From the sequence record MT446393.1: DNA of 40,612 nt; one strand, given 5' to 3'. Shown piece after piece: positions 893 through 38,817 of the stretch. Below the pieces are notes generated by a model that saw only the letters and a program-made list of their open reading frames with translations, was not told the DNA's origin and ran no database searches. The DNA comes from Escherichia virus TH16. How positions within the stretch are numbered: position 1 is the stretch's first letter; each line of letters begins with the position of its first letter. Both the position numbers and the translations under genes were made by a program.

Positions 893-932
893 ATCATGAA
901 GGCCAAGACTTTGAGTCATGACCTTGAGTCTA
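893..932 (-). promoter_or_regulatory. Conserved hairpin-forming element, candidate RNase III processing site (R1.1-like position)
   Basis: Shares the AAGGTCA...TGGCCTT stem with elements at 9879..9926 and 33349..33398; can pair as an 11/12-bp stem. Confidence 0.35.
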
Positions 933-953
933 ATCCTATAGTGATAGTTTAGG
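931..953 (-). promoter_or_regulatory. Phage RNAP promoter (phi1.1-like); minus-strand CCTAAACTATCACTATAGGATTA
   Basis: Matches the window-wide promoter consensus; predicted TSS near 936. Confidence 0.65.
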
Positions 954-1027
954 TTAACCTCTTCTGCGTTGGATTAAAGTGAATACTGCGAGTGCTCCCA
1001 GCCACAGGGCCAGTAACTGTAGGTCTG

Positions 1028-1228
1028 TCATTTGGTTGCCGCCTCTTTAAGAGCCTGTTCGTGTGCCCGCTCCACCTGCTTAACCAACCACTTGAATGGG
1101 ACGTTAAGTTGCTTTGACATCTCGGTAGGGATGACCGTGGTCTTCACCAGACCCTTGCCGTTGTGTTCTGTTACGGTCACGATTTGAGTCCCACCCTTAA
1201 CGCCAGTCTGCTTGTGTGCAAATTTCAT
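1028..1228 (-). CDS. Hypothetical protein (66 aa) immediately downstream of the RNAP gene
   Basis: ATG start with AGGAG RBS; tightly packed after the RNAP stop. Confidence 0.5.
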   Translation of the reverse strand: MKFAHKQTGVKGGTQIVTVTEHNGKGLVKTTVIPTEMSKQLNVPFKWLVKQVERAHEQALKEAATK

Positions 1229-1242
1229 AACTCTCTCTCCTG

Positions 1243-3924
1243 TTAAGCGAATGCAAAGTCTGAAGACAAGATGTCTTCGATATTCAGTTTACCTTTCTTC
1301 GGAAGCTCAGGCAACTTGTCGCGCTGACTCTCGTGAAGCTGGTATTCGAACTGCTCGTAGAAGTCCAGCAGCACATCGTTGTCGCGGTAGGTCTCGACCA
1401 TCGTCTCACGGACTCCACGGAACAGATACTCAGCGTCAGCCGGGATGGTCCCGAAGCTATCGTGAATCACTGCGAATGACACCACGCCATACTTGCGGTG
1501 CGTGTGGACTACAGTCTTGCGGAGGTGGCTACCATCTTGTGAGTGGACGAAGTTCGGGCTAATGCCTGACTCCTGCTTGTGCTTGTCCAGCTCTTTCTTC
1601 GTGCCTTTGTTGACTGTAGGCTGAAGGTTGAATGACCCTAAGAACATCAGGTTCAAACGTGTGGTATCCTTCTTGCGGTATTCCTGCCAGACCGGGAAAC
1701 CATCAGGTGTGACCCAGTGTACCGGAAGGCAAGGCTTCAGGATTTCGCCAGTCTTCTTGTCCTTCACTTCAGCAGCCAGCAGCTTGGCAGCGCCTTGAAG
1801 CCACTTCATCGCGTCTACCGCAGCAACTACGGTCACACTCACAGCCTCCCAGATCATCTTAGCCATGAAGCGAGACGCTTGGCTTGGCTCAGTGAACATA
1901 GCGCCAGACCCTGAGTCAATCGCTGGCATCACGATGTCCTCGTAAACTTGGTCTGCGAAGCCGTACTCTTTCGACCCGTAGGCCAGAGTCATGACTGAAC
2001 GCTTAGTGACCTTGCGTGACATACCGTAGGTCAGCCACTGACGGGCCAGCTCGCGTGTCCCCAGCTTGATACGCTCGGTAATCTCACCAGTTTTCTTGTC
2101 CTCGTGAGTCACCATCTCGTTGTCCGTACCGTTAACCAGCAGGACTTTAAGCTCCTCCTCAATTCGATCAGACACGATGCGGTAGATGTCTTGAACCTTA
2201 CCGGATGGCGTTAGGTTTACTGCATGTCCACCGATGTGGTCACGAAGCATCGCGCTGAAGTGCTGAATCCCAGAGCAGGACCCATCGAACGCTATCGGCA
2301 GCGAGCAGGAGTAAGACAGGCCGTGGTGCATTACGCCAGCATACTCGAAGCAGAACGCGAGGAAGCAGAACGGAGAGTCTACCTTACCCCACCACTCAAT
2401 GCTGTCCATCGGTGCCTTAGCAGCAGCCATGATGTTAGCGTGGTTGTCTTCCACCCACTTGATGCGCTCCTCGAAGGTGACTTTATCGACACCCGCACAG
2501 TTTGCACCGTGGACCTTCAGCCATTTAAAACCATCAGCACCAATAGGCTTGCCGACTGCCAGAGTCAGGAGACCCTTCTGCATGTCGTTACCCTGAGGGT
2601 TGAACATCGGTACAGCGTAGACGCGACCCCGCCAATCCATGTTGTATGGAAACCAGATGGCCTTGAACTGAGAGAACTTGTTCGCTTGGTTGACGATAAA
2701 GCTCAGTGACAATCTGCGTGACTGTCTGGCCTTCTCGCGGCGATAGATACCAGCAGCAGCCTTCTTCCATGCCTTGAGTTCTTCTTCAGTCTCACCCGCA
2801 TAGTCCTCAGGCTTCAGTGGTTCCATCTGAGGGATGTCATCAATAGGCGTGTTGTTCAGCTTCTCGACCATGTTCACCACGTCCAGAACCTTCTTGTTAA
2901 CTTTCCAAGGTGTATTCTGGATGATGTTCACAGCGTCATAGACTTCAGGCATGTACACGTCTTCGTAACGTGCTGCCGCAGACTTGGAACCTAAGCGAAT
3001 CAGCGGCAATGGTCTGCGACCTTTGGCCCAATACCCACCTCCTACGACACCAGTCCACGGCTTAGGTGGAACTACGCAAGGTTGATAGACTGGCGCGATA
3101 CCCGCAAGGCTGAAGCCACGTTGTGCCATCTTCTTGACCCAGAATTCTGACAGGTGGACCATCTCTACATCAGCCGCTGCATTGCCAGCACCATAACGCT
3201 TAAGCTCGACCAATTGTGTTGACTGGATGACAATCTCAAGCATCTTGATGCCAACGTGTACCGCCTCGGTAGGACTCCAAGTCCCCCACGCATCTTCCAG
3301 TTGACCTTGCTCCAGCATGGAGGCCTCAACCGCTTGCATGTAGGCTTTCTTGTAGGATGCCCCGGCTCGCTTGTTCAGGTTCTCAGCTATCGCCTTTTTG
3401 AAGTGCTCCTTCTCCTGATCACGGATTCGACCGAAGCGGATTTCATCCTCAAGTGTGCGACCTATCGCGGAGGCCATCGGTGTAATCGGTATCCCTTCAG
3501 GCTTGACCAGCTTGGAGAGAATGACCTTCAGTATGATAACCGCAGCAGACTCACAGGAGATGCGCATAGAGCGGTCCTTGACGGCCTTCTCTTCAGTGCT
3601 CAACATGGTGAACGCTACGCTAGGACGAGAGGTTGACAGCTTCCCGTCTTGACCTTCATGCCACTCCTTTACGGCTTGCGCAATCTTAGGGACCAGAGTC
3701 TGCATCAAAGGTTTGGCGACCTGATTGTCTGCCAGTTCCCCGCGCTCAGTCTGTCGCTCAAGGTTCTTGATGAAACGTCGCTCGCCTTCAGTGTATGCCT
3801 CATGCTCAAGCTGAAGCTGTTTGACTGCAAGGTCCTGCCCGTAGTGGTCAGCCAGCAGGTTAAACGGCTCAATGGCGTTTGACACATCAGAGAAGTCGTG
3901 TTTGTCAATAGAGATGACGCTCAT
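1243..3924 (-). CDS. gp1: Single-subunit DNA-dependent RNA polymerase (893 aa)
   Basis: Clear similarity to T7/T3 RNAP along the whole length (e.g. FPYNMDWRGRVYAV, ESGISPNFVHSQDGSHLRKTVV, C-terminal FAFA). Confidence 0.97.
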   Translation of the reverse strand: MSVISIDKHDFSDVSNAIEPFNLLADHYGQDLAVKQLQLEHEAYTEGERRFIKNLERQTERGELADNQVAKPLMQTLVPKIAQAVKEWHEGQDGKLSTSRPSVAFTMLSTEEKAVKDRSMRISCESAAVIILKVILSKLVKPEGIPITPMASAIGRTLEDEIRFGRIRDQEKEHFKKAIAENLNKRAGASYKKAYMQAVEASMLEQGQLEDAWGTWSPTEAVHVGIKMLEIVIQSTQLVELKRYGAGNAAADVEMVHLSEFWVKKMAQRGFSLAGIAPVYQPCVVPPKPWTGVVGGGYWAKGRRPLPLIRLGSKSAAARYEDVYMPEVYDAVNIIQNTPWKVNKKVLDVVNMVEKLNNTPIDDIPQMEPLKPEDYAGETEEELKAWKKAAAGIYRREKARQSRRLSLSFIVNQANKFSQFKAIWFPYNMDWRGRVYAVPMFNPQGNDMQKGLLTLAVGKPIGADGFKWLKVHGANCAGVDKVTFEERIKWVEDNHANIMAAAKAPMDSIEWWGKVDSPFCFLAFCFEYAGVMHHGLSYSCSLPIAFDGSCSGIQHFSAMLRDHIGGHAVNLTPSGKVQDIYRIVSDRIEEELKVLLVNGTDNEMVTHEDKKTGEITERIKLGTRELARQWLTYGMSRKVTKRSVMTLAYGSKEYGFADQVYEDIVMPAIDSGSGAMFTEPSQASRFMAKMIWEAVSVTVVAAVDAMKWLQGAAKLLAAEVKDKKTGEILKPCLPVHWVTPDGFPVWQEYRKKDTTRLNLMFLGSFNLQPTVNKGTKKELDKHKQESGISPNFVHSQDGSHLRKTVVHTHRKYGVVSFAVIHDSFGTIPADAEYLFRGVRETMVETYRDNDVLLDFYEQFEYQLHESQRDKLPELPKKGKLNIEDILSSDFAFA

Positions 3925-3993
3925 ACTTAAAGTCCTTGTTATTAGTCTTTCACTTAAAGTCTCTTCGGTCTTTCACTTGGAGTCTTAGACCTT

Positions 3994-4016
3994 GAGTCCT
4001 ATAGTGATAATTAAGT
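3994..4016 (-). promoter_or_regulatory. Degenerate phage-promoter-like site upstream of the RNAP gene
   Basis: Minus-strand ACTTAATTATCACTATAGGACTC; mismatches at -14, -11 and +3 to +6. Confidence 0.35.
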
Positions 4017-4021
4017 CAGGA

Positions 4022-4282
4022 TTACTTGCATATCAGCGGGTTAGCGTGGAGATGACTGAAGCCACCGTTGGTAGTGTGCTTGATTGTTGACCGTTGGTCT
4101 ATCGCCTTCCAGCCTGAGACCAGAAGTTTACCATCATCGGTGATTGGTCGTCCACCATACGCCAGACACACCAGCTCGGACTTATGGCCCTCTGCTCTCA
4201 GGCGGCGCTGGAGGAACATATCGCGCTGTACTTGCTCCATGCGGCTACGGCTTGATGATTTATGAGTGTATACGGTTTTCAT
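4022..4282 (-). CDS. Hypothetical early protein (86 aa)
   Basis: ATG start; stop overlaps the start of the upstream gene by 1 nt (TAATG). Confidence 0.5.
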   Translation of the reverse strand: MKTVYTHKSSSRSRMEQVQRDMFLQRRLRAEGHKSELVCLAYGGRPITDDGKLLVSGWKAIDQRSTIKHTTNGGFSHLHANPLICK

Positions 4283-4479
4283 TACAGTTTGCTCCCAAGA
4301 GTTGCGATGTCCCAGACGTTCGCTAAGTTGCGCATGAATCGTCCGTTAGGTTGACGTACAGTCCAGCGACCCAGACGTACATAGTTGAATTTGTAGACTT
4401 TACACGCCTTGTTGATGTCTCTCACCAGCACGTAGGCGATAAGTACATAGCCTATGGCTATCAATAGTGCAGATATCAT
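4282..4479 (-). CDS. Hypothetical early protein with an N-terminal hydrophobic helix (65 aa)
   Basis: ATG start; MISALLIAIGYVLIAYVLV hydrophobic N-terminus. Confidence 0.5.
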   Translation of the reverse strand: MISALLIAIGYVLIAYVLVRDINKACKVYKFNYVRLGRWTVRQPNGRFMRNLANVWDIATLGSKL

Positions 4480-4565
4480 AGCGATTTCCGTTTAATACAA
4501 TCGTATATCCCATAACCTATCATCCAGATAACTGGCGCTAGGCATACCCAATATCCCACACTCAT
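4476..4565 (-). CDS. Small hydrophobic peptide ORF (29 aa), not in the ORF track
   Basis: AGGAG RBS 6 nt upstream of ATG; stop overlaps the next ATG (ATGA); MSVGYWVCLAPVIWMIGYGIYDCIKRKSL. Confidence 0.3.
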   Translation of the reverse strand: MSVGYWVCLAPVIWMIGYGIYDCIKRKSL

Positions 4566-4632
4566 AGTTAACTCCTATTAATGCAAGTGGTAATCTTCGA
4601 GGCCACCTATCAGTTAGATGACCTCTCGTCTA

Positions 4633-4782
4633 TCACTCAGCGTGTAAGCTGTCGTGAATACGTTTGCGGCTACCGTAGACCACTTTCAATAGACGCATAG
4701 CCGCATCGTGGTTTAACCGCCCGGTCTTGACCAAAATCCGGGCGTTGGTGACGTGGTGCTGGCAGAGACCATAAGTTACCAT
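4633..4782 (-). CDS. Hypothetical early protein (49 aa from the internal ATG)
   Basis: Track ORF 4633..4827 begins with TTG; ATG at 4782 has a GAGG-type RBS. Confidence 0.4.
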   Translation of the reverse strand: MVTYGLCQHHVTNARILVKTGRLNHDAAMRLLKVVYGSRKRIHDSLHAE

Positions 4783-5300
4783 CTTGATGGCCTCACCTCT
4801 TGCAGCTTGGACACAAGGAAGAAGCAATCCACCAGTATCAACTTGCCATTCACGGCCCGTACATTGCGTGGGCTTATCTCAAACTGAATGTCAGACCCAA
4901 AGTTAGCGCAAGCATCCAGCGCCATCAGTACATCCATCAGACCTTCCCGCACAGTCTCAGTCTCAGACCTGTCGTGTGCAGCTTGGAATATCTCGTACCA
5001 CTTGTGATACAGGTCAGCAGGTCGAGAGAATCTCGGAGACCGTGAGAAGCAATCGCGCAGCACCTGATAGAGTTGCCACTGGTCATCATCTAAATGCGCC
5101 TTGAGTCCTCGTGTTGGTGGCATGTGGTCCATCTCATACGTGCCAACCTCAATCATCTTGACTTCAGGGAACAGTGGAGACTCAGGGAACCATCCCCATG
5201 CCATACACTCCTTTATTGGGTCAGAAGAGACCAGAAGTACACGCTTCCCGCAATCCTTCAGGTAGCACTTAGTGAACGCGCCTTTGCCTATCAGTTTCAT
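4776..5300 (-). CDS. gp0.7: gp0.7-like protein kinase, short form (174 aa) without the long C-terminal region of T7 gp0.7
   Basis: GKGAF glycine-rich segment and weak similarity to the remembered T7 gp0.7 kinase region; position before gene 1. Confidence 0.45.
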   Translation of the reverse strand: MKLIGKGAFTKCYLKDCGKRVLLVSSDPIKECMAWGWFPESPLFPEVKMIEVGTYEMDHMPPTRGLKAHLDDDQWQLYQVLRDCFSRSPRFSRPADLYHKWYEIFQAAHDRSETETVREGLMDVLMALDACANFGSDIQFEISPRNVRAVNGKLILVDCFFLVSKLQEVRPSRW

Positions 5301-5316
5301 GTTGTTATTCCTTGCG

Positions 5317-5505
5317 TTAGAATGGATTAGACCATGTGCTGTACTGGTGGTTGGAAATCATGCCAGACTTGCAGAGACTGTCTGTATAGTCATTCCAATA
5401 CTGCTGTTTAGCTATGTCGTCGCCTCTGAAAGTCTCAGGGAACTCGCGGAAAGTCTCACGACATTCAGCTATCACTTCCGCTTTGGTCATCTTACGATAC
5501 GCCAT
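5317..5505 (-). CDS. Hypothetical early protein (62 aa), second gene of the early operon
   Basis: ATG start with AGGA upstream; preceded by the conserved leader element. Confidence 0.5.
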   Translation of the reverse strand: MAYRKMTKAEVIAECRETFREFPETFRGDDIAKQQYWNDYTDSLCKSGMISNHQYSTWSNPF

Positions 5506-5513
5506 CTTGTTTA

Positions 5514-5573
5514 TCCTATAGTTAGTGACTATCAGTCAGGCCGCTATGAGTCTAACGACCTGTAGTTAATCAC
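5514..5573. repeat. Copy 1 of a ~60-bp duplicated early leader element (contains TGACT-ATC-AGTCA inverted repeat)
   Basis: 21 bp identical to 5764..5784 plus flanking similarity to 5755..5822. Confidence 0.6.
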
Positions 5574-5746
5574 TGGCAATTGAACGCGTGGTCCAGGCAC
5601 ATATTGAACTCTTCCTGCGCAAGCTCGCGGCTATCCCACTCAGTCTTAGACAATCCGTAGATTATCACATGCTTAGTGTGATTCTTACAGTCTTTAGCCG
5701 TATACCAGATTAAGCCAAGATCTTCGTTCATCGCTATGATTTTCAT
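5570..5746 (-). CDS. Hypothetical first early protein (58 aa) in the position of T7 gene 0.3; not in the ORF track
   Basis: ATG with AGGAG RBS; translation MKIIAMNEDLGLIWYTAKDCKNHTKHVIIYGLSKTEWDSRELAQEEFNMCLDHAFNCQ. Confidence 0.5.
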   Translation of the reverse strand: MKIIAMNEDLGLIWYTAKDCKNHTKHVIIYGLSKTEWDSRELAQEEFNMCLDHAFNCQ

Positions 5747-5754
5747 AATGTTAC

Positions 5755-5822
5755 TCCTACTTAAGTTAGTGACTATCAGTCAGGGCCTTCAGATGTAGAC
5801 TCAAAGACCCTGTAGTTAGTCG
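5755..5822. repeat. Copy 2 of the duplicated early leader element
   Basis: See 5514..5573. Confidence 0.6.
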
Positions 5823-5929
5823 CTATCGGCGCACATTAAGAGTTTATCCAGATTGTTAAAGAGCATTCCCTTCAGTCATATGACTTCAGGTAGACCATTT
5901 CAGTGTCGGTCATCACCGTTGTTTCGATG

Positions 5930-5966
5930 TGGTACATACTACTTTAAGTCGTTACTGCTTGTCAAC
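5930..5966 (-). promoter_or_regulatory. Host sigma70-type early promoter (T7 A3-like)
   Basis: Minus-strand TTGACA, 18-nt spacer, TAGTAT; flanks resemble the remembered T7 A2/A3 region. Confidence 0.5.
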
Positions 5967-6064
5967 CACTTTCTGTCATCTGCCTGTTGTTCGTATGACT
6001 TATCAGGCTGTCTACTTGACCGGGATGACCCGGCGTCTTCACTATCCGGTTGTTGCCGTGTCGT

Positions 6065-6107
6065 GTTGACGGAAGTTATTTAGCCATAGTCTAGACCTAT
6101 AGTCAAT
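6065..6107 (-). promoter_or_regulatory. Candidate host sigma70 promoter (T7 A1-like)
   Basis: Minus-strand TTGACT, 17-nt spacer, CTAAAT. Confidence 0.3.
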
Positions 6108-6329
6108 AGGTAATTTGAAATAATATTGATTAAGCTATCGTCGGCCCCATAGTGACTAAGAGGATATAGTCTTTGACTAACATGTATTAGACCTTAAGTC
6201 TATATCTTTGTGTCTATTAACTGTAGGTCTGTGACTGTAAGCTGTGAGTGTCTTATGGTTGTGACTGTAGGTTAGTGAGACTGTAGGTGTATGACGTAAT
6301 GTTATACTATAACACTATACAGATAGAGA

Positions 6330-6502
6330 CTCAGAGACAGACCCATAGTCCCAACCTATCGTCCAACCTCCAGCCATAGCCACTACCTATCGTCGACCTA
6401 ACGTCTTGACCATCGGTCCAACCCTATGATAGACTGGGGTAGGGCCTTTGGTCTGACTTAAAGAGGGCCTATGGGGAGACTTTAGGTTCTTGAACTGTGA
6501 GA
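6330..6502. repeat. Collapsed terminal-repeat region; physical genome left end near 6502 on the minus strand
   Basis: Minus strand from 6502 reads TCTCACAGTTCAAGAACCTAAAGTCTCCCCATAGG..., resembling remembered T7/T3 left ends; repeat extent is an estimate. Confidence 0.45.
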
Positions 6503-6739
6503 TGTGGTCTCAAACTTTTGGTCCAAAACTCATCGTCACTACTGTAGGCCTAAGCCACTGTAGGTCAAGGACCGTAGGTCAGGCGACACTAGGATAGACC
6601 AATAAGTAGGATGACCCTAAGTGAGCTTCTATTAAGGTGTTACCTAAAGTCCTTGACTACAGTAGCTAAGGTCAGTAGAGTAGCGTCAGCTATGAACTGA
6701 CCTTAGGTCTTACGCTCATGAATAGTTACCATGATTGCG

Positions 6740-6898
6740 TTAATTACACTGAGAGACCAGAGAACATACGAGAGTCTCGACCCACCCGACCCACTGACTT
6801 CCAGCAGTAACGCCAGCAGCAAGTAGAACAGCAGCAAGAAACCTGTATGTAGCTCGATTGGTCGCCAGAGCTTTAAGTACAGCTTTGGTCTTTGCCAT
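6740..6898 (-). CDS. gp19.5: gp19.5-like small hydrophobic protein (52 aa), not in the ORF track
   Basis: AGGAGG RBS; position after terminase; translation MAKTKAVLKALATNRATYRFLAAVLLAAGVTAGSQWVGWVETLVCSLVSQCN. Confidence 0.45.
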   Translation of the reverse strand: MAKTKAVLKALATNRATYRFLAAVLLAAGVTAGSQWVGWVETLVCSLVSQCN

Positions 6899-7078
6899 AT
6901 GCTACATACCTCCTGTATCTATGGTCGGTGACTATCTGTATTGGAGGGATTATGATTAATATCACCCTCCTTCCATCGGTGCAAGCCTTAGGTAAGAACT
7001 CGGAGTCTGCCTCCTAAGGTCTTGCATAAAGTCTGCATATGTATATTCACTACAGTAATACTATAAGTAACCGGGGGT

Positions 7079-7101
7079 CTTCCCTATAGTGATAGTTAAG
7101 T
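7079..7101 (-). promoter_or_regulatory. Phage RNAP promoter downstream of terminase, reading toward the genome end (phiOR-like)
   Basis: Minus-strand CTTAACTATCACTATAGGGAAGA. Confidence 0.6.
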
Positions 7102-7195
7102 CCAAACTTCTTGTAAAACAGTAGGTTAGACTGGTAGTAACTATAGGTTACTAACTGCGTATTCATGCAGCTTTCACCTATAGTTATTCATTCAG

Positions 7196-8962
7196 CTAGT
7201 GGAGCGTAACGTATGACCCTAGTCCAAGCTCGTCGTCCGTATCGTTAGTTACCCGGACCCCATTGTCCCAGAACTCAGTGTGGATGGACTCGAAGCCTTT
7301 CCGTGGGTTCTCCATCTGTTCCTCCAGCCACTCCTCAGTGACTTCACGTTCGCCTTTGTTGGCATCCTTCGCCATAGACTCAACGAAGAACTGTACACCG
7401 ATAGCCAGCGCATCAAGTCGGTCATCGTGTGCCAAGGCTCCACGCTCACGAGAGATACGGGTCATCTGGTAGAAGAGAGAGTAGATAGGGTTACGAACAC
7501 CGTCCTTATCAGAGGCCGACTGGTAGTCTTGGACGATAGCAGCAGCGTTAACGATAAGTCGGTGAGACCCCATGATAGGCTCCAGAACGTCACAGATGCG
7601 GAGTTCTTTCTGACCCTTACTCTTCACTTCAGTTACAGCAGCAGGATGGATACGGGCCGCTACAGGCTTGAATAACTCAAGGTACATACCATCACCGAAG
7701 TTACCCTCAATGACGTATTCGTTTACCTTCCACTTACGACCAATCTTAGCCAAGGCTTCTAGCGTAGAGTCCTCATAACCACCACGCATACCTCCAACTT
7801 CCATAGCGAAGATGTAGCCGTTGAGCTGATACAGTACCGCATAGCCAGTTTCATCCTTACCACGACCACTAGGGTCAATGACCAGAATCTTCTGGGTGTA
7901 CGAACTGAAGGCAGAACCTACAGTCTGATACGTGTGGTATGAGTCACCCATGAGTCCAACGTTAGGAACGTCCTCACGCTTGTTCTGAGGGTTTGGCAAC
8001 CATTGGTAGACCATTGGGCTGGACGCTGGGTCCAAGTCCGCTACGATAAGGTCACGGAGCTTCAGAGGGTACTTCTCAGCATCACTCAGGTTCGGGTTAA
8101 GCATGAACTGCAGAGCGAAGCCAGCTTTACCATAGGACAGCTCACGTTCCTTCAGGTCCGTATCATCGAATCGTACCTCATCGGTCGGACGCCAGTAGAA
8201 GGGCTCAGGGTCCTCTTCAAGCTCTGCCTGAAGCATCGGTGCCAGACGGTCGCCGTAAGACTGCCAGTCCTTCCTGTCGCGTGGATAACGAGCCGGCCAG
8301 ATAGTAGTGGTATATCCACGGCCTTCAAGCTCACGATACAGGGTCATCTCGTTCTGAGGAGTACCCAGATAGATGATTGTGCCTCCAGGCTTCAGGATAG
8401 CGTCGAACTCTTTAACAAGCTCTGACAGACGGTCTCGTGCAGCCTGAGTCGCTGAGTTGTTAGGAACCTCCACGTCATCTGCAATCAGGATGTCAGCACG
8501 ACTACCAGTCAACTGACCAGTGATACCAACGGACTTAACCGAAGGTGAGTGGTCTGGCTTGGCTGGCCCAACGTCGAAGCTGATAACCGCATCTCGCTGT
8601 CTCTGCTTAGGTTTGAGTTCCTGAAGCTGAGGCATGAGGTCGATGATTCGCTTGATGAAGATGGAGTTAGCATCTGCTCGTTCCTTTGAGGCCGACACAA
8701 TCATGAACTTCAAGTCTGGGTTGTTCCATAGTTTCCAGACCACGAAACCACAGGTCAGAAACGACTTGCCAATACCACGGAACGCCTGAAGGATGAAGCG
8801 GCGATTATCCCCAGCAGCCAGCTTCTTACACATATCTATCTGGCAGCGGGTTGGAACCGGAAGGCTAAGAGCTTTCCAGAGAACGAAGATGAAGAACACG
8901 AAGTCGTCCCTCATCCTTTGGGTCATTTCTGCCTGTCTTTCAGCGGGTGTTTTCTTAGACAT
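7196..8962 (-). CDS. gp19: Terminase large subunit / DNA maturase B (588 aa)
   Basis: Length and sequence similar to T7 gp19; ATG start and TAG stop checked. Confidence 0.95.
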
Positions 8963-10489: not shown

Positions 10490-13051
10490 TTAAATGGTTT
10501 TTACTTCCCATCGACGGTCATAATAGTGGCTGAATCCACAATACGTTAAAGTCATATGGACAACCGCCATTGACATAGAAGCAGTCGCGGTATCAACACG
10601 AATAAACGTTTTACCGCCCGCCACCATTTTACTTACGGTAATCCCATCAAGAGATTTATCCCCGGCATCCTTATTCGACCATAGAACACCAGAGGCTACG
10701 TTTGCTTCTGTTGACCCAGAAATACTAAACAATAACCGACCTCCTGCTTCGGTGCCCCTCAGCCCATTCTTATTTACGGGTATGATAGACATCTCCCCCG
10801 CCAGAAAGCACCCACCTTCAAATCTGCTTTCTTCTCCAACAGCGGTAAGAAGGATATCTACACAACGGTTCCACGGTAGGATGAACGACGCTGTCTCAGT
10901 TCGTACTTGTCTGAAATACGCTTCGCTGTTAACCGCTGCGGATGACATAAGCACCCCGTTATATGAATTTGCACCTTCAAGTGGCGCAGACCCGTAAACC
11001 CTGCCTCCGACGGATGAGCTTTTTACAAGTGTGTTAGAGTAGACAGCAGTGCCATCGGTGAGTTTGATGAATCTGAACATTTCGCCAAAATAGAACGAGT
11101 TACCGTATGCACCAACGTTAAGGCCGTCCACCTTATTTATCAATTGGATAGTATAATCGGATTTTACATACCCGGAATCCAATACAATACTACCTTTAGG
11201 CATGCGTGATTCATTCTTCGGCGGGGTTATAAATCTCAATACCCCAGTATTCATAGACGACTGAATCCAACACGACACGTTGCGAAACACGACTTTATAG
11301 GTATCGTCAGTTCCTTCGTATGCGGAAAAGTCTAACGCATCGACGCCGTTTATACCCTCTATCCCTAAACCATCGATCTCCAAGCTGCGGATATTACCCA
11401 TAAAAGAGTGAGGCTTGATACACCCGTCAGCAGCGATATTCGTCGATTTTATGTACACAATGGGTGCGCCTGATGCGGGCACTTCAGGGGCATATGTAGT
11501 ACGGTTAATCGCTGCGCCCCATAAATAGCCGTAGTCGCAGTGGTGCGCCCATATCGCTCTCATATCCAGCGAGGTGGAACCGGATACCGCAAAGCCATAG
11601 GTGCAATCGTAAGCATAAAGATTGCTGACAGTGCTTACGAAAGCAGCATTAGGGAACGCGAATTTGTAGTGATAGAACTCGACGTTATTTATGTCAAACA
11701 GCTTGCCTCCACCACCGTTTGTCCCGGGATCACTTATCAGTAAAGGGCACCCGGAATACGCGCTATCTGCGTTACGAAACGCGATGTTATTTACGTGCGG
11801 ATTGTGCGCCCATAGGGTTGAAATAAACCCGCCTTTCCCTGACGTGTAAATAATGCTCTGTCGTGGTTTGACTCCTCGTAAGTCTAAACTCTTGCCAGCC
11901 CATCTGTTTAAGCTAATATCAATCTGGGTGGTACCTATGTAGATTGGCTGTTCGATTAATAAAGGAATATTGTGCGCAATACTTGCGGTATACGCAGCCA
12001 GCATCGCGGCCCCGTCGTTATGGGTTCCGGAAAGGTCGGCAGCCCCCATGCTTGGCGCTTTAGGATATGGAGTTCCCTGAATGGTGCTGCCGTCGATATA
12101 TGGAGCATCCATCCATGCGCCAAACATTTTAGGGGTAATTCCCCGAACGTTTGATAAGTCCCTTTTCCAGCGCTTACCTCCACTAGTAATTATAACAACG
12201 CCATTATCATCATTAGTTGTGGAATCTGCTAAGTCCGCATAGAACCACCCACCACCAGAATCACCAGACTCATTGGGTGTAATTGATGTTGTATGTTTTT
12301 CTACAAAAATGCGCTGGCCATCAACATCAGGTTCAATAGTTCTTAATGTTGATATATCATCGCATTTGCCGATTAACTTAAATCCATCGCTTTTATTTAA
12401 TTGACTCCTTAATGAAGCATCACCAACACTAACCCACGCACCTAGTCCAATCCCACCGGAAGTTTCAGGAGTTGAACCAGCAGGAACGTTCTTTGGAAGC
12501 GTACCATCCCAGCGGTAATAATCACCATCCTCTTCCCATAGCAGGACCTCGTTCCATGTTGTAACGTTGAAGCCTTTCTCGAAGGAGCGACGGGTAATAT
12601 AGCCAATTCGACCAGCTTCCTTGATACTCGCAGCGATTCCTCGTGCTTCGTCCTCGCTATCCTTAGCGTTGCCAGCAGAGGTACCAGCAGCATCGGCATA
12701 TTCCTTCGCTAAGTCAACCGTTTGGTCTCGACCTTCTTCTGCAATATGGATAGCCTGAAGCTCTGCATTGGTCAGGTCACTAGCTGTCAACACTGAGCCA
12801 TTCCTGAAGTCTACCACTAAGTCAGTTCCAGTCTGACGGTGAATACGAACGATGTCGAAACCTGATTGGTCAACCAACATCTCAATCATCGTTGGATTAA
12901 GGAATCGGTAATCTCGACCAACTTCCAGTACACGGTTCATGGTAGGGTTAGAGCTATTCACCAGCGTAACAACAACAAACGTTCTGGCTAGGTAGTCGAA
13001 CTCAATCCTGTACTGAGTGTTTCCTGAAGGGAATTGTGTAATAGTGGACAT
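10490..13051 (-). CDS. gp17: Tail fibre / tailspike (853 aa): T7 gp17-like N-terminal adaptor with a large unrelated C-terminal region
   Basis: N-terminal ~150 aa align with T7 gp17 ([28 protein letters not shown]); the rest is Gly/Ser/Thr-rich and not T7-like. Confidence 0.9.
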
Positions 13052-13097: not shown

Positions 13098-13120
13098 GTT
13101 TCCTATAGTGATAGTTTAGT
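13098..13120 (-). promoter_or_regulatory. Phage RNAP promoter (phi17-like) overlapping the 3' end of gp16
   Basis: Minus-strand ACTAAACTATCACTATAGGAAAC. Confidence 0.7.
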
Positions 13121-16100
13121 CCTTGATGTGAATACCTTGCTCCTCAAACGTTCCAAGCAGCAACTTCTGGGTAATCGGGTCGTTCGGAACCAGTTCACGG
13201 AACGTGTTATACATCCCGGTCATGTAGTCCCGCTCATTGACACGAGTATCCGCCTTTAGGTATCCAGCCAAGTTATAAGCCGAAGCACCAACGTTAGCAG
13301 CATATCCAAAAGCTGGAACCTGCTCCAAGAAGTTACCAACGACATTCATCACAGGGTCACTTGTAGCCGCGCCATATGGGATAGCACGTTCAGGCTTCTC
13401 TGTAGGTGAACGAGGTAGGATAGACGAGCGGAGCAGCTTAGTGTCCTCATACCCAGCGATGCCACCTAGAATGTTAGCTACCCCAAGTGGGCCACCCAGA
13501 TGTGAACTACGGGACAGAGCCGCATATCCAATCATCATCGGGTCCAGAGCTTGCTTGAGGTATTCACGGTCTCTTCCATCCTGCATAGCGTAAGCCTTGA
13601 CGTGAGCCTGAGCCATGTAGTAGATACCAGCCAGACCCATAGACATCACGGTAGATAGAGCAGCATCCATCGCTCGGTTGTTCTTCGTGGAGTTATAGAA
13701 GGTACGCATGGTTCGCCCATTGATGGACTTGATGACGAAGTTCTTAAACTGAAGGACAGTCTTAGCGAGAGGACCATACGCCTTGGCGTCCATGTTTGAC
13801 AGCTTGTGGGGCCGGAGTAACGTTTCGTCAGCGATGGTGTCACCCATACGCCACAGGTCCATAGCCCTTGGGTCCTGACTGAACGCCTTCTTGTCCTTGA
13901 TGGTATACTTCCCGTCTGGACCACGAGTCACTGACTCACGGATTAATGACTTAATGCCCTTCCACTGCTCATCAGATATACCAGCGGTCTTCAGCCAGCG
14001 GTCATCGAACTTACGCTTACTACCAGTAAGGCTATGCTCAACGATGTCAGACAGGAAGCCTTGACGTCCAGCATCTAACAGGTAGTTGGTCGTACCATTG
14101 AGGACTTTAGTGAACGGAGAGCGTACTGCAAGTTCACCAGTGTAATACTTGGCAGTCCCCAGAGCTGTAGCTGCCCCGCGACCTAAGTCGCTATAGGAGC
14201 GCAGACGGTCAATGACGTCCTGTTTAGACGGGCGGATTGAGTCATCAAGTTCCTTACCGAAGAGAACATTGTGAAGGTCCTTAATCTCTGAGGCTCCTAC
14301 CTTCTTGTTACGGAAGGCTAGGTCACGGAACATCGGGACTCCATGAAGCAGTGCACGAACGTTACCACGAGCCAGCATACCGCCAATCTCCGTTAAGTTC
14401 TGAACACCCATGTAGGCATTCTTAGCGAAGAACGATAGGTCTGTCATTGTGCGCATCACGGTAGCGAAGGCCGCATCATCAGCACCATCACGTCGAGCAC
14501 GACCAGTTAGAATCTTCAAAGTGTCACGTAAGGTAGATACTTCACCTTTCAACTTACCGTCGTCCCCAGCCTTGTTCATCATGGTCTCAACCAAGTCCTT
14601 CATGTCCTTCGTGGTTTTGCCTGTACCAGCCATGATAGCAATGTCACCATTAACTCGACGGTTGTATGCCGGGACAATCTTGTCCATGTCCCACTCACGC
14701 AGGTTGTTGACACTGAAGGTCTGCCCATTAGGTAGGACGATTGACATATCGCTATCGAACAGGTTACGAGCCTCAAGGAAGCTGTTGTTCTCCAGACCAA
14801 CCAGACCGTTGATGTTCTCTTCCATTACGGATGAACGTTCGAACTGCTCGGTGTGGGAGATACCGTAAGCCTTATCGTTGGCGTACTTATCGACCGCAGC
14901 CGCAAGCCCCTCTGGAGTCAGCGTAGGGTCAGCCTCTAAGAGTGCCTCGTCCACGCGTTTCTTTACTTCAGGTCGAGACGCATAGCTGGTCAACCATGAC
15001 TTTTTGATGGCCTCCTGCAACGCCTCTGGACTCCCAAGCTCCTTGATGTACAGCTCCTTCATCTGTTTGCTATACACATGAGGGACGTAGGTTCCCTTGA
15101 AGCGGCTACCCGGAAAGATAGACTGAGCGTCTGGGCGACCAAACATAGACGGGTTCTCCATCATCTCACGCTTGGCGTCAAACTGGTTCTTCAGCAGGTC
15201 ATAGACTTTCAGTTCTCCCGGAGTCAGTTCAGCCTTCAGGTTTCCGCTACCATCTTCGATAGCCATAGACACACGCTGGTAGATGTCCTGACGGAATGCG
15301 CCGGAGTCTCGCCAGAATGCTGTCTGGAAGTACGGGTCCTTGAGCGCCTCAGTAACCGCATCGTCGATGTCGTTGTAGAACCGATGGTCCACAGCACGAA
15401 GTCTCTCGAATACGTCTGACGCAGTGGTCCCGATTTTACCTGAGGCACCGGACTGCATACCAGTCGGTGAACGCACTAAGTCAGCAGCGACTCCACGAAT
15501 CTCAGGGTTCTCGGACCGAAGCAGCTTCAGGCCAATCTCAGTCAGCCCACCAAGGTTCACACCAGCAGCCGCACGTTCAGGCTCAATCACTTCGTCAAAG
15601 ACTTGACGTGTCTTAGGGTTCAGAGGGTTCTCACCAATCAGGATTGAACCATCTTCCAGTCGTACACTACCCGGCTCGTTCGGAACGTCTGCGAACTTAA
15701 CACCTTGATGACTGAAGGTCTGCTCACCTTCCTGAATAGGGAGACGAGACAGGTCCTGACCATCAACGTTACGAGCGGTCTCGCGAGCTTCCAGACGTGT
15801 AGCTGGACCAGCAAACTCATTAGTGTTGCGACCTAAGGCTCTGCCTAATCCATCAGAGATAGCAGTCATACCACCACCGAAGAGAGCACCACCAAGGATA
15901 GCTTCAGCCACATGAGCATCACCACCAGCCACTGAGGTACGGGCCATCTCGGACACACCAGCCAGTGCTCCAGATTGAGAAGCCACGGTGAACATCTTGT
16001 TGACCAGCTTACCACCTTTACCCACCTGTCCAGCGATAGGAACGTAGGTTAGAGGATCCACACCAGCACCAATCACACCAGCGGCTAACTGAGCACCAGT

Positions 16101-19301: not shown

Positions 19302-19889
19302 TTAGCTATGACCTGTAGGTGTGCCTTTAGCAGCACTAATAGGTGCAGCACCACCAGAGCTTGTTGCCCCAGATATTGACTTACCAGCAGCATATCCCTG
19401 CATCCCGGCGCTAGCAACATTAAGTGCATGAGCCAGTGGGCTGGTCTTGATGATTTTACCTTGACCACGGATAGCAGACTTTGTGTTCTCAATGTTGGCG
19501 ATACGGTTCCCGAAGATAGCCGCATAGTCGCGGTTGTAACTTTCGGTAATCCCTGCTCGCTCCTTGACTGTATCTCCTGCGACCTGACGTTCAATCCTGT
19601 CCATAGAGTTACCTTCCAGACCGGACTCAGCCACCGCAGCTCGGACCATACCCTGATTGCGGATACCGTTGAGCGTGGTCTCTGTCAGTTCAGCCATCTG
19701 CTGCTCCTTCAGGTCTCTCTCCTGCATCCTCAGGTTGGCGTCAGAGTAGTTCATCTGCTTAACCATTCCCTGAGCCTGTCGGTTCTGAGCGTCAATTGCT
19801 GCACCTTCGGCCTTGGCCTGTTGTGATGCGGACATAGTGGCCCCTGCTACAGCCATGATACCCATGCCGATACTTACGGGTTCACACAT
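19302..19889 (-). CDS. gp14: Internal virion protein B (195 aa)
   Basis: Similarity to T7 gp14 (EGNSMDRIERQ, C-terminal KGTPTG). Confidence 0.85.
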   Translation of the reverse strand: MCEPVSIGMGIMAVAGATMSASQQAKAEGAAIDAQNRQAQGMVKQMNYSDANLRMQERDLKEQQMAELTETTLNGIRNQGMVRAAVAESGLEGNSMDRIERQVAGDTVKERAGITESYNRDYAAIFGNRIANIENTKSAIRGQGKIIKTSPLAHALNVASAGMQGYAAGKSISGATSSGGAAPISAAKGTPTGHS

Positions 19890-20373: not shown

Positions 20374-20396
20374 AGTCCCTATAGTGATAGTTAAGG
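20374..20396 (-). promoter_or_regulatory. Phage RNAP promoter (phi13-like)
   Basis: Minus-strand CCTTAACTATCACTATAGGGACT. Confidence 0.7.
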
Positions 20397-23594: not shown

Positions 23595-23632
23595 GCAAAA
23601 ACCCCTCAAGCACCCGAAGGCACCCAAGGGGT
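23595..23632 (-). terminator. T-phi-like intrinsic terminator between the capsid gene and gp11
   Basis: Minus-strand hairpin CCCCUUGGGUGCC-UUCG-GGUGCUUGAGGGG (with G-U pairs) followed by UUUUUG. Confidence 0.7.
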
Positions 23633-23637
23633 TTCAA

Positions 23638-25064: not shown

Positions 25065-25087
25065 TCTCCCTATAGTGATAGTTTAGT
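25065..25087 (-). promoter_or_regulatory. Phage RNAP promoter (phi10-like)
   Basis: Minus-strand ACTAAACTATCACTATAGGGAGA; predicted TSS near 25070. Confidence 0.8.
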
Positions 25088-26066: not shown

Positions 26067-26089
26067 TGTTCCTATAGTGATAGTTTAGG
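26067..26089 (-). promoter_or_regulatory. Phage RNAP promoter (phi9-like) overlapping the gp8 stop
   Basis: Minus-strand consensus match ...CTAAACTATCACTATAGGAAC. Confidence 0.7.
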
Positions 26090-28825: not shown

Positions 28826-28886
28826 CTTGAATCTCCTCTTTAAGTTAAGACTAAAGTCTATCTTATAGTCATATCTTAGGTCCTAA

Positions 28887-28909
28887 AGTCCCTATAGTGA
28901 TAGTTTAGT
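28887..28909 (-). promoter_or_regulatory. Phage RNAP promoter (phi6.5-like)
   Basis: Minus-strand ACTAAACTATCACTATAGGGACT. Confidence 0.75.
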
Positions 28910-31153: not shown

Positions 31154-33325
31154 TTAGTGACATTCGCGCCACGTAGGTCCTATCTTCCCCTCGGTGTCAA
31201 GCACACACTTGAACTGGTAGAACTCTCCAACCTCTCGCATTGTGGACTGCGCCACTCTAACGATGTCCTCGGCTATTTCCATAGTCCTTGCTGCAACCTG
31301 AACTTCGTCATGGACAAAAGCCATAATCGCAAAGTCACCATCCCAGCCATGCACGTAGCCTTTAGCTTCTAGGTTCCTCTCAAGCCAAGTGAACCACGTT
31401 TTACAGACTACCGCACCATCACCTTGAAGTAATGCGTTTAGTGCTGAGTGTGGAGACCGTATGTGGATACGGCGACCGTCAAGTCCACGCAACCAACGGC
31501 GTTTCCACTTAACGATGTTCTCTCCGTCCACCCACTTAGAGTCTGATATTAACGTATTACTAACAGCTTCCCTGAGGTCTTTGATGGCTGGTGTACCCTC
31601 AATGAATTTCTTCATGAGAGCTGAACCTTCCTTCTTACCGCCACCGACTATCAGTCCAATCTTAGCGGCCCCTGCACCATACAGGAACGCATAGATGAAC
31701 GTCTTAGCGTTGTTACGGAAAGCATCATGGTCGTGGTTCGACTTATCGCGTGGGACGTTAGGTGCTAACCCAGCGTTTACTGCGTTGGCCCAGTGGATGT
31801 CACCTTCGACCACAGTCTTCGCATAGGCACCACCGTCAAACGGAGCCGCTCGGTTCCCCAGACAACGAAGCTCAAGACCTGAGGCATCCACACCTACTTG
31901 AATCCAAGGGTCTGGCTTACCGTCATTCTTGTTCCAAGCTGCACCGAAAGCACCACGGCAAGTCTCACCATATGGAGCACCGTTAGCCGGGACTTGAGCC
32001 ATGTTTGGTGAATTATGAGTCGCACGTCCGGTTACTGCCCCACATGGGTTGATTGAACCGTGCATACGTCCGTCTGGACCTACAAGTTTCAACCATGCGT
32101 TCTTACCTTCAGCCGCCTGACCGATGCGCTTCTGGACTACCAGGTACTCACGGACCAGCTCTACGCAAGCCTGAGCCTCTGCGTCTGGCAACTTAACGTG
32201 TTCTAACGTCTCGTCATCGACTACAGGTTTACCGGTGTCAGTGAAGTCCACAGGCTCCCAACCACGCTCCATCAGGACTTTCGCTAAGTGGTCTCCGCTT
32301 CCCGGATTAAACTCAACGTAAGTGATAGGTGTGAACGGTGCTCCATCCATCGTGTCTCGTGAGTCGAACTCGCAAGGTTCAAGACCTAAGCGTTGAGCTT
32401 TGTTCTTCGGCTTCTTGAATACTGACCCGACCTTAGGATACACGACTCGTGGATACTTCGGAAGGTCCTTGCCTGTCCGTGGATGTCTGAAGAACTCCTT
32501 GCCTCCCTTTGGTGCGTACCAGCTACCGAAAGTCGAACGCAGCTTGTCCAGCAACTCTGCACGTTTGACGGTGAGTTCACGATATAAGCCTTCGACCATC
32601 TCGGTGTTCATCGGATAGCCGTTACGTTCCATCTTCGCACAGGTCCACGCAGCATCATGTTCCAGACGCAACGCATAAATCTGGTCGAAAGCGAACTGTT
32701 CAGACTGGAAGTAATACTTGTCAGTCAGGAACTTCTTGAACAACGCCAGTGTGACCACAACGTCTTGAACGTTATAGTCCAGCATCTCCTGAGACGGGAA
32801 CAACCATTCGTCACCCGACTTATATTCGATACCTTCCGCCTTGCACTTGGCAACGTAATCGTGTTTGTACTCACCTTTCATCTCACCGAGACGATAACCC
32901 CAAGCCTCAAGAGACTGACGTCCCATCATCTGAGGTGGCAGACGACCAGCTTTCACTGCGCCCATGTCTGAGAACTTAATGTTTGGATACATCAAGCGGC
33001 CCAGCACCAAGGTATCAATCATCTTGTGTTTCGGGAAGTTAAAACGTTTCCCAAAGTACATACGCTTCAGCTTGTCTATAGCCGGGACGTCATAGTTGAT
33101 ACCATTATGGAAGACAAGCATACCATCCGGTGATGCGGCAATCTCTTCCACCTTCTGCACATACTCTTTGAAGCCACCGACGATACCGACCATCGGAGCT
33201 ACCCCATACTTAAGGGTCTCATTCGACTCGGCGTTAATCAGGACCCCACAGTGAAACTGGGAGACTGTATCAAGGAGACCGTTGGTCTCGATGTCAGAAC
33301 CCCAGATACTATTAAGGTCAAACAT
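31154..33325 (-). CDS. gp5: DNA polymerase, family A (about 723 aa from the ATG)
   Basis: Similarity to T7 gp5 throughout (DIETNGLL, VFHNG.KYDVPA, KTFIYAFLYGAG, C-terminal GPTWRECH); GGAGGA RBS before the ATG at 33325. Confidence 0.95.
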   Translation of the reverse strand: MFDLNSIWGSDIETNGLLDTVSQFHCGVLINAESNETLKYGVAPMVGIVGGFKEYVQKVEEIAASPDGMLVFHNGINYDVPAIDKLKRMYFGKRFNFPKHKMIDTLVLGRLMYPNIKFSDMGAVKAGRLPPQMMGRQSLEAWGYRLGEMKGEYKHDYVAKCKAEGIEYKSGDEWLFPSQEMLDYNVQDVVVTLALFKKFLTDKYYFQSEQFAFDQIYALRLEHDAAWTCAKMERNGYPMNTEMVEGLYRELTVKRAELLDKLRSTFGSWYAPKGGKEFFRHPRTGKDLPKYPRVVYPKVGSVFKKPKNKAQRLGLEPCEFDSRDTMDGAPFTPITYVEFNPGSGDHLAKVLMERGWEPVDFTDTGKPVVDDETLEHVKLPDAEAQACVELVREYLVVQKRIGQAAEGKNAWLKLVGPDGRMHGSINPCGAVTGRATHNSPNMAQVPANGAPYGETCRGAFGAAWNKNDGKPDPWIQVGVDASGLELRCLGNRAAPFDGGAYAKTVVEGDIHWANAVNAGLAPNVPRDKSNHDHDAFRNNAKTFIYAFLYGAGAAKIGLIVGGGKKEGSALMKKFIEGTPAIKDLREAVSNTLISDSKWVDGENIVKWKRRWLRGLDGRRIHIRSPHSALNALLQGDGAVVCKTWFTWLERNLEAKGYVHGWDGDFAIMAFVHDEVQVAARTMEIAEDIVRVAQSTMREVGEFYQFKCVLDTEGKIGPTWRECH

Positions 33326-33348
33326 GGTTAATCCTCCGTTTAGTCTAA

Positions 33349-33398
33349 TCATAAAGGCCACTCGCTGTGAATGACCTTGAGTCTAGACCTAGAAGTCT
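33349..33398 (-). promoter_or_regulatory. Conserved hairpin element, candidate RNase III site (R4.7-like position upstream of the polymerase gene)
   Basis: Same conserved block as 9879..9926. Confidence 0.35.
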
Positions 33399-33552: not shown

Positions 33553-35311
<1,759 letters not shown>

Positions 35312-35464: not shown

Positions 35465-35487
35465 CATCCCTAAGGTGATAGTTTAGC
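35465..35487 (-). promoter_or_regulatory. Variant phage promoter (TAAGG in place of TATAG) upstream of gene 4
   Basis: Minus-strand CTAAACTATCACCTTAGGGATGA; two mismatches in the -4/-3 region. Confidence 0.4.
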
Positions 35488-37818: not shown

Positions 37819-37841
37819 CTGTCCTACAGTGATAGTTTAGG
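37819..37841 (-). promoter_or_regulatory. Phage RNAP promoter (phi2.5-like), TACAG variant
   Basis: Minus-strand CTAAACTATCACTGTAGGAC. Confidence 0.55.
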
Positions 37842-37995
37842 TCTCAGGACGAATCCGTCCGACCACAAACCCAGCGTCCTCATACTCTTGGGACTTCATG
37901 GTAGCCTCTTCAAGAGACTTTGCGTACACCGGAACCTCGAAGGACTGAACGCGCCCCTCAAGCTCCACGATGTATTTCTTTTCCTCAAGTCTCAT
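37837..37995 (-). CDS. gp2: gp2-like inhibitor of host RNA polymerase (52 aa from the ATG)
   Basis: [14 protein letters not shown]...GFVVGRIRP resembles remembered T7 Gp2; AAGGAG RBS; track ORF begins with GTG at 38058. Confidence 0.75.
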
Positions 37996-38073
37996 AGTCC
38001 TTTCTCCTTCCACATATGGTACATGGACAGGTAGTCCACATTCCCGGTTGATACCCACTGCCTAAAGCACCAG

Positions 38074-38514
38074 CTACTTGGAGTCATAGCACTTACCTTT
38101 ATGCAGGTCGAACAGCTCCTGATAGAAGGCTGCTTTGTTCAGGTCCTTCTCCATAGTCGCCAGCTCTGACTTCTTACCAGCCCGAAGTCGATACTTCAGG
38201 ACGTTACCCATGCAGAATCCACGGAACTCGCTGACAGTCATGGACCGGGCGATAATCTCAATGGACTCCACACCGTCAAAGACCTGATAGTGGGATGGCT
38301 TGCGCACACCATCATCACGGACTTCTGGTTTGTCCTGAGCATGATTGGTGATAATTAGTGCGAATTGACAATGTTTAACTGGTTCCATAATCCCCGGCCA
38401 TTTCACCTCTACTGAGTCCCCTGACGGACATACGCTAAGAACCTCACCATCACAGCGGCCAATAAATTGACTAAGTGGCCCAACGTATCGCACAACATCC
38501 CCGACCTTAATCAT
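38074..38514 (-). CDS. gp1.7: gp1.7-like protein (146 aa): conserved C-terminal domain with a different N-terminal region
   Basis: C-terminal KPSHYQVFDGVESIEIIARSMTVSEFRGFCMGNVLKYRLRAGKKSELA matches remembered T7 gp1.7. Confidence 0.7.
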   Translation of the reverse strand: MIKVGDVVRYVGPLSQFIGRCDGEVLSVCPSGDSVEVKWPGIMEPVKHCQFALIITNHAQDKPEVRDDGVRKPSHYQVFDGVESIEIIARSMTVSEFRGFCMGNVLKYRLRAGKKSELATMEKDLNKAAFYQELFDLHKGKCYDSK

Positions 38515-38767
38515 TGACCACCTCCTTCACGAACTCAACGAACAGACGAACGCGAGGCCATTTAGTGTAGACCACAGGTACGCTGGTCTCACGCTTCTGG
38601 CGAGCCTCTTCAGCTTTACCAGGAGTAATCAGAGCGTAGACTGTAGGTGATAGCTTAACGGCCTTCCCGAAGTAGCCCAGCTTCTCGTTGCGCTTAATGC
38701 AAGCGAACGGGTTGTGAGACAGGTGGAATGTACTGGTATAACGATTGAACATTAAGTTCTTAAACAT
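38507..38767 (-). CDS. Hypothetical protein (86 aa) in the gp1.5/1.6 position
   Basis: ATG with AAGGAGG RBS, first gene after the promoter at 38795..38817. Confidence 0.5.
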   Translation of the reverse strand: MFKNLMFNRYTSTFHLSHNPFACIKRNEKLGYFGKAVKLSPTVYALITPGKAEEARQKRETSVPVVYTKWPRVRLFVEFVKEVVND

Positions 38768-38794
38768 TGTCGGCCTCCTTAGGTCGAGTTATGG

Positions 38795-38817
38795 TTGTCC
38801 TATAGTGATAGCTTAGG
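38795..38817 (-). promoter_or_regulatory. Phage RNAP promoter (phi1.5/1.6-like)
   Basis: Minus-strand CCTAAGCTATCACTATAGGACAA. Confidence 0.65.

Follow-up and report, generated by a model that had tools for sequence, protein, structure and literature searches.

Eleven putative promoters of the K1F type and their cognate RNA polymerase in the genome of Escherichia virus TH16

The genome record of Escherichia virus TH16 (MT446393.1), analysed here as a window of 40,612 nucleotides (nt), carries eleven 23-bp sites that are almost certainly phage promoters read by the phage's own RNA polymerase (RNAP), encoded at 1243..3924, and that together make up the standard promoter set of K1F-type phages of the genus Kayfunavirus. 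An earlier, sequence-only reading of this DNA had proposed eleven promoters with a specificity distinct from those of phages T7, T3, K11 and SP6. That inference is correct, and the specificity is already known: it is that of the K1F polymerase-promoter pair. The sites, their non-random occurrence, their positions at gene boundaries, their synteny with relatives and the covariation of promoter positions -12..-8 with RNAP residues 748 and 756 were computed here, and the actual transcription start and the orthogonality to T7 are taken from the literature on near-identical enzymes.

All eleven sites were found again, and all lie on the minus (coding) strand. Relative to the 23-mer put forward earlier, ACTAAACTATCACTATAGGGAGA, five sites have at most three mismatches, including the exact match at 25065..25087, and the other six have four to six. 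These mismatches fall mostly at -17 and +3..+6, with six located within -14..-3. A search with the 13-base core CTATCACTATAGG, allowing up to two mismatches, returned 11 matches, all on the minus strand, against a chance expectation of 0.90 +/- 1.06 and a maximum of 5 in 100 shuffles. The position weight matrix scan that the sequence-only reading had suggested likewise separates the sites well, with scores of 28.3-37.0 bits for the eleven and 15.1 and 10.8 bits for the next best matches on either strand, although this gap is somewhat inflated given that the matrix was built from the same 11 sites. The scan found no twelfth site in the window, nothing else scoring above 15.1 bits, and the 15.1-bit match at 28858..28880 and the 10.8-bit match at 6464..6486 were both rejected as promoters. 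The former, CCTAAGATATGACTATAAGATAG on the minus strand, is a degenerate promoter-like copy located 29 nt downstream of the phi6.5-type promoter and kept in K1F (17206..17228); it could be what remains of a tandem promoter, or belong to a leader element.

Every site lies either between two genes or across the final codons of the gene before it. For 10 of the 11, the predicted +1 stands 30-162 nt ahead of the next gene, and downstream of the remaining, phiOR-type site there is no listed open reading frame (ORF) for 1579 nt. The downstream genes were assigned with PHROGs and by collinearity with K1F; by PHROGs they encode RNAP, gp2.5, primase/helicase, scaffold, capsid, internal virion protein and tail fibre. 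This arrangement bears on the alternative that the repeats constitute a dispersed signal other than a promoter, for instance sites of replication or packaging, targets of homing endonucleases or hotspots of recombination. Some T7 promoters (phiOL, phiOR and phi1.1) also act in replication or packaging, and a second role of this kind is conceivable for 7079..7101 near the genome end. However, all eleven sites are oriented with the genes, precede genes or operons at short distance and have the T7-group initiation core CACTATAGG in common; moreover, in relatives the variable block changes together with residues of the RNAP loop, and a near-identical sequence drives transcription in vitro (PMC12272871). 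A non-promoter role of the repeats is thus highly improbable.

Read as promoters, the sites belong to the T7 group, being 23 bp long, spanning -17..+6, carrying the CACTATAGG core and lying on the coding strand ahead of genes. Only two sites depart from the core (-7..+2), at -4 and -3. The overall consensus, CT(A/T)AACTATCACTATAGG, is of the K1F type, with ACTAT at -12..-8 in nine of the eleven sites, ATTAT at 3994..4016 and GCTAT at 38795..38817. The earlier reading had described this block as ACTATC at -12 to -8; the block itself stands and the span does not, as six bases extend from -12 to -7. Two variants in the TATA region had also been noted, and these are indeed present as CACCTTAGG at 35465..35487 and CACTGTAGG at 37819..37841, the TAAGG and TACAG given earlier being their plus-strand complements. 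Likewise, the site before the RNAP gene that had been called degenerate (3994..4016) differs at -11, where C is replaced by T.

The RNAP is 98.5% identical in protein sequence to K1F gp1, 94.0% to the enzyme of phage Ro45lw, 64.2% to that of T7 and 59.9% to that of K11, and the catalytic residues D537, K631, Y639 and D812 are conserved. Its specificity loop is identical to the K1F loop and has the K1F-type residues N748, S754, N756, Q758 and V761 (T7 numbering). A comparison with the T7 loop, another check proposed in the sequence-only reading, places S754, N756 and V761 among the differing positions, with N756 replacing R756. In T7 RNAP, the loop residues R746, N748, R756 and Q758 read the major groove upstream of -7 (PMC11880802). 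The N-terminal AT-rich recognition loop region also differs from that of T7, as does the promoter at -17..-13.

By analogy with T7, a scheme of recognition may be proposed. The partner of the -17..-13 segment, (A/C)CT(A/T)A, would be the N-terminal AT-rich recognition loop, as in T7; the K1F loop, which carries N748, N756 and Q758, would read ACTAT (-12..-8) from the major groove; and CACTATAGG (-7..+2) would serve melting and initiation at the +1 G, as it does in T7. The covariation of loop and block among related contigs, described below, supports the link between the two. Six of the sites (6.5, 9, 10, 13, 17 and OR) would drive the late and structural genes, four (1.1, 1.6, 2.5 and 4) would drive genes of the replication class, and one lies directly before the RNAP gene (Table 1).

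Table 1. Predicted promoters, the RNA polymerase gene and the terminator hairpin in the window, with counterparts in related phages
Feature	Position	Strand	Predicted +1	Sequence	Score (bits)	Context	Counterparts
Promoter directly before gene 1	3994..4016	-	3999	ACTTAATTATCACTATAGGACTC	30.5	+1 75 nt before RNAP ATG at 3924	K1F 2474..2496; EcoDS1 annotated 2244..2266
phi1.1-like, after gene 1	931..953	-	936	CCTAAACTATCACTATAGGATTA	34.5	+1 30 nt before ORF 661..906	Identical K1F 5552..5574; identical Ro45lw 5483..5505, annotated promoter
phi1.6-type	38795..38817	-	38800	CCTAAGCTATCACTATAGGACAA	33.2	Leader 33 nt	Identical K1F 7183..7205; identical Ro45lw 7178..7200, annotated phi1.6
phi2.5-type, G at -3	37819..37841	-	37824	CCTAAACTATCACTGTAGGACAG	32.9	46 nt before gp2.5 single-stranded DNA-binding protein gene	
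Before primase/helicase gene, C at -4 and T at -3	35465..35487	-	35470	GCTAAACTATCACCTTAGGGATG	28.3 (weakest)		
phi6.5-type	28887..28909	-	28892	ACTAAACTATCACTATAGGGACT	35.8		Identical K1F 17177..17199; 23-mer in Ro45lw 16775..16797, record annotates phi6.5 at 16774..16796
phi9-type	26067..26089	-	26072	CCTAAACTATCACTATAGGAACA	37.0	Overlaps portal gene end; 60 nt before scaffold gene	K1F 19998..20020; EcoDS1 phi9 19813..19835
phi10-type, before major capsid gene	25065..25087	-	25070	ACTAAACTATCACTATAGGGAGA	35.3	120 nt before capsid gene; only exact full-consensus match and only perfect GGGAGA site	Identical in K1F and Ro45lw
phi13-type	20374..20396	-	20379	CCTTAACTATCACTATAGGGACT	34.5	35 nt before internal virion protein gene	EcoDS1 phi13
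phi17-type	13098..13120	-	13103	ACTAAACTATCACTATAGGAAAC	36.5	Overlaps gene 16 end; 52 nt before tail fibre/spike gene	Identical K1F 32597..32619; identical Ro45lw 33567..33589, annotated phi17
phiOR-type	7079..7101	-	7084	ACTTAACTATCACTATAGGGAAG	35.4	Downstream of large terminase gene, near right genome end	K1F 38852..38874; EcoDS1 annotated phiOR 38500..38522
RNAP (gene 1), T7-like single-subunit	1243..3924	-				893 amino acids; PHROG 414 RNA polymerase, E=0	
RNAP specificity loop (T7 residues 739-770)	1585..1680	-		YRKKDTTRLNLMFLGSFNLQPTVNKGTKKELD			Identical to K1F loop
Tphi-like terminator hairpin	23598..23635	-				Gap between capsid gene and gene 11; 17-bp stem then U run	

The ACTA block, the non-T7 loop with N756 and the absence from the window of any match to the T7 consensus TAATACGACTCACTATAGG or to the T3 consensus, with up to three mismatches allowed, bear out the proposed specificity unlike that of T7, T3, K11 and SP6. 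The CGACT block at -12..-8 and the N748/R756/Q758 combination that mark a T7 promoter proper are likewise not found here. Such a consensus could be taken for a previously undescribed specificity class, that is, a new orthogonal RNAP-promoter pair. This is very improbable. The consensus and the loop are identical to those of K1F, the same sites are annotated in the phages EcoDS1 and Ro45lw, and the 15-mer AACTATCACTATAGG occurs in at least 120 IMG/VR stretches, many of them from contigs of about 39-41 kb. In addition, the PK1F/T7(K1F) pair has been published and used, and the Ro45lw enzyme has been tested biochemically.

Specifically, Temme et al. 2012 equipped T7 RNAP with the K1F loop and exchanged positions -12..-7 of the T7 promoter for the consensus of the K1F subfamily (PMC3458549). 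The resulting T7(K1F)/PK1F pair was active and, in vivo, orthogonal to the T7, T3 and N4 pairs (PMC3458549). Table 2 of another report gives the same variant as 632S, 754S, 756N and 761V, paired with the ACTAT block (PMC11880802), and the 754S/756N/761V loop and ACTAT block of the window constitute the same specificity-determining pair as in the engineered K1F system. Takatsuki et al. purified the Ro45lw RNAP, observed in vitro that its transcripts from ACTTAACTATCACTATAGGGA(CT) begin at G, and delimited the minimal promoter (PMC12272871). Since this enzyme is 94% identical to that of the window and has a near-identical loop, the in vitro transcription check proposed in the earlier reading has in effect already been performed on a relative enzyme. 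Finally, a 2026 genome paper on the Kayfunavirus Sparklingdew reported the repeats CTWAACTATCACTATAGG as promoters (PMC13298934). The window consensus matches the published promoter sequences of both Sparklingdew and Ro45lw.

Two considerations weigh against the assignment of all eleven sites as active promoters of the K1F type: the evidence of transcription stems from the enzymes of relatives, and the strengths of the sites are predicted ones, especially for the site with T at -11 before gene 1 and for the two TATA-region variants. None of the observations made here contradicts the assignment.

The assignment is reinforced by the conservation of the whole set among K1F-like relatives. K1F has the same 11 sites in collinear arrangement, nearly all of them base-identical, both TATA-region variants included. 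EcoDS1, EFA-1 and ST31 also have the same 11 sites on the coding strand, and Ro45lw has these 11 and a twelfth before its DNA polymerase gene. The GenBank record of EcoDS1 annotates exactly these 11 as phage promoters, one of them before gene 1, with names that include phi1.6, 2.5, 6.5, 9, 13, 17 and OR, and the Ro45lw record annotates six of the 11 together with the terminator. Thus, 11 of 11 sites correspond both with K1F and with the annotated promoters of EcoDS1, and the same correspondence holds for EFA-1, ST31 and Ro45lw.

Conservation also informs the question of whether every site is functional. It has to be considered that only a subset is, and that the variants at 3994, 35465 and 37819 are decayed, inactive copies. 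Positions -11, -4/-3 and -3 are known to matter in T7 promoters. The three variants score lowest of all, at 28.3-32.9 bits, and their changes fall at exactly these positions (-11, -4/-3 or -3). Decay is nonetheless unlikely. The gene 2.5 variant, with G at -3, is base-identical at this gene boundary in each of the five relatives, namely K1F, Ro45lw (where it is annotated phi2.5), EcoDS1, EFA-1 and ST31. The gene 4 variant CACCTTAGG, with C at -4 and T at -3, is kept in K1F, EcoDS1 (annotated at 11107..11129), EFA-1 and ST31, and differs by one further base in Ro45lw, which has CACCTAAGG. Such conservation is better explained by selection for promoters tuned to a lower strength than by decay, and the retention of both variants across six genomes would suggest selected weak promoters comparable to class II of T7. 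As for the site before gene 1, it keeps its position in 24 of 24 related contigs and tracks changes in RNAP specificity, and the only lineage-specific change is the T at -11, shared by the window and EFA-1.

The promoter before the polymerase gene is the sole point of some research value. In the 24 related IMG/VR contigs, the T7-group promoter core CACTATAGG is present at this position throughout, with one base changed in seven, and in the window and its relatives the promoter lies about 70-75 nt before the RNAP start codon. The -12..-8 block follows the loop of the adjacent polymerase: N748/N756 loops are found with ACTAT (ATTAT in the window), D748/R756 loops with ACCCT, the T3 solution, and a third loop, with K at 748, Y at 756 and R at 758, with GGTAC. 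The T at -11 is found in none of the 24 contigs and elsewhere only in EFA-1, and the Ro45lw group has A at -2 instead. This promoter, which keeps its position in all 24 contigs and tracks the specificity of the polymerase, is therefore under selection.

In the records of T7, T3 and K11, phiOL is annotated close to the left end, and none of them marks a phage promoter immediately in front of gene 1. The window and its relatives have no phiOL-like site; in the window, the weight matrix scan gave none near the left genome end (5700..6502). A promoter at gene 1 would make polymerase synthesis self-reinforcing. It is tempting to suggest that this site is a functional positive-feedback element of the K1F clade, one that replaces the phiOL layout, has been kept through switches of specificity and is tuned down in TH16 and EFA-1 by the C-to-T change at -11; we regard the case for this proposal as evenly balanced. 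The promoter is annotated in EcoDS1, and a literature search in a searchable library found no discussion of its role in polymerase autoregulation. The stretch of 78 nt that leads from the promoter to the RNAP start was also folded in search of a hairpin of the RNase III type, and no significant structure was found there (z = -0.7). The leader (3925..3998, minus strand) contains short direct repeats, GACTTTAAGT and AAGTGAAAGAC, each present twice and kept in relatives.

Other transcription signals complement the promoter set. The Tphi-like hairpin at 23598..23635 folds as RNA with -25.2 kcal/mol (z = -5.2), a value equalled by 0 of 200 shuffles, and it stands at the position where EcoDS1 and Ro45lw annotate terminators and where T7 has Tphi. 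This hairpin was found by reading and folding; a generic scan of 1..8000 for sigma-70 promoters and terminators gave no excess over shuffles, its terminator component being blind to hairpins of the Tphi type. Some 270 nt separate the capsid stop (23901) from the hairpin, and this region corresponds in position to one annotated as gp10B-like in EcoDS1; it may represent a frameshift extension. In the early region, a sigma-70-like site is located on the coding strand at 5936..5965 (minus), with TTGACA, an 18-nt spacer and TAGTAT. It is a candidate for an early promoter used by the host RNAP, like A1-A3 in T7.

The window as a whole is the circularly permuted genome of a K1F-like phage (genus Kayfunavirus, Studiervirinae), whose genes follow T7 order on the minus strand. 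The RNAP gene lies at the low-coordinate end because the record is permuted. The ends of the K1F genome map to about 6502 (left) and 6326 (right), so that the direct terminal repeat of about 177 bp appears as a single copy. With this repeat apparently present only once, the record does not show the linear genome as it physically exists but a permuted assembly of it. Many Kayfunavirus records match the RNAP gene with 95-98% nucleotide identity, and identity to many such records is about 92-94% over 82-86% of 25 kb of the window. The minimum cited for a genus is 70% nucleotide identity (PMC9866566). Both this level of identity and the T7-like gene order with a single-subunit RNAP place the phage within Kayfunavirus.

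K1F itself is collinear with the window except for a few exchanged modules; almost every block has 82-96% identity, and a single short one has 70%. The DNA polymerase gene (31154..33361, minus strand) is uninterrupted and encodes 735 amino acids; in the K1F annotation, an inserted HNH endonuclease interrupts the gene, and K1F 14845..15964 has no counterpart in the window. The tail fibre/spike gene (10490..13051, minus strand) aligns at the DNA level with its K1F equivalent only over the 5' portion of about 650 nt. Its N-terminal 220 or so amino acids match tail fibre families and the remainder matches phrog_33504, a different family, which points to an exchange of the receptor-binding module and to a host that is not K1 Escherichia coli. 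Finally, the closest match to the RNAP gene (97.6% at the nucleotide level) is MT350292, a record named 'Enterococcus phage EFA-1' and flagged UNVERIFIED_ORG. Both the taxonomy line and the order of genes in this record are those of a Kayfunavirus, so the host named there is probably incorrect.

Taken as a whole, recognition of the sites provides a complete transcription map comprising four replication-class promoters, six late promoters, one promoter at gene 1 and a Tphi-like terminator, besides placing the phage in the genus Kayfunavirus. Synthetic biology already uses the K1F RNAP and its promoter as a standard orthogonal part, and the biochemistry of a near-identical enzyme has been described. 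As such, most of the result has little significance beyond correct annotation, and it is the promoter at gene 1 that implies something further, namely self-amplifying polymerase expression in the clade.

Among known systems, the closest are the other Kayfunavirus phages. K1F, EcoDS1, ST31, Ro45lw and Sparklingdew share with the window the same 23-bp consensus, the same number of promoters (11), the same gene contexts and the same variants, and their RNAPs are 94-98.5% identical to that of the window, with identical or near-identical loops. The window differs from these relatives in the T at -11 before gene 1, shared with EFA-1, and in being without the twelfth site of Ro45lw. The engineered T7(K1F)/PK1F pair has the same specificity determinants and retains T7 sequence elsewhere, with TAATA at -17..-13 and the T7 N-terminal domain. 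By contrast, -17..-13 reads (A/C)CT(A/T)A in the natural sites of the window, and the natural enzyme differs from the engineered one in the region of the AT-rich recognition loop.

T7, with 17 promoters of the form TAATACGACTCACTATAGGGAGA, has the same -17..+6 architecture, an identical -8..+2 segment (TCACTATAGG) and, like the window, the preferred GGGAGA start at the capsid promoter. Equivalent positions are occupied by phi1.1, 1.6, 2.5, 6.5, 9, 10, 13, 17 and OR, and in both genomes a Tphi-type terminator follows gene 10. However, all four bases differ at -12..-9 (ACTA in the window, CGAC in T7), -16..-14 is CT(A/T) rather than AAT, and the RNAP, 64% identical, has N756 in place of R756. 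The window also has 11 promoters rather than 17, no phiOL and a promoter before gene 1. Promoters of the T3 type (AATTAACCCTCACTAAAGGGAGA) likewise share the architecture, and the window has instead ACTAT together with N748/N756. A T3-like solution, combining D748/R756 with ACCCT, is used by some of the related contigs, whose RNAP N-terminus is 77-80% identical to that of the window.

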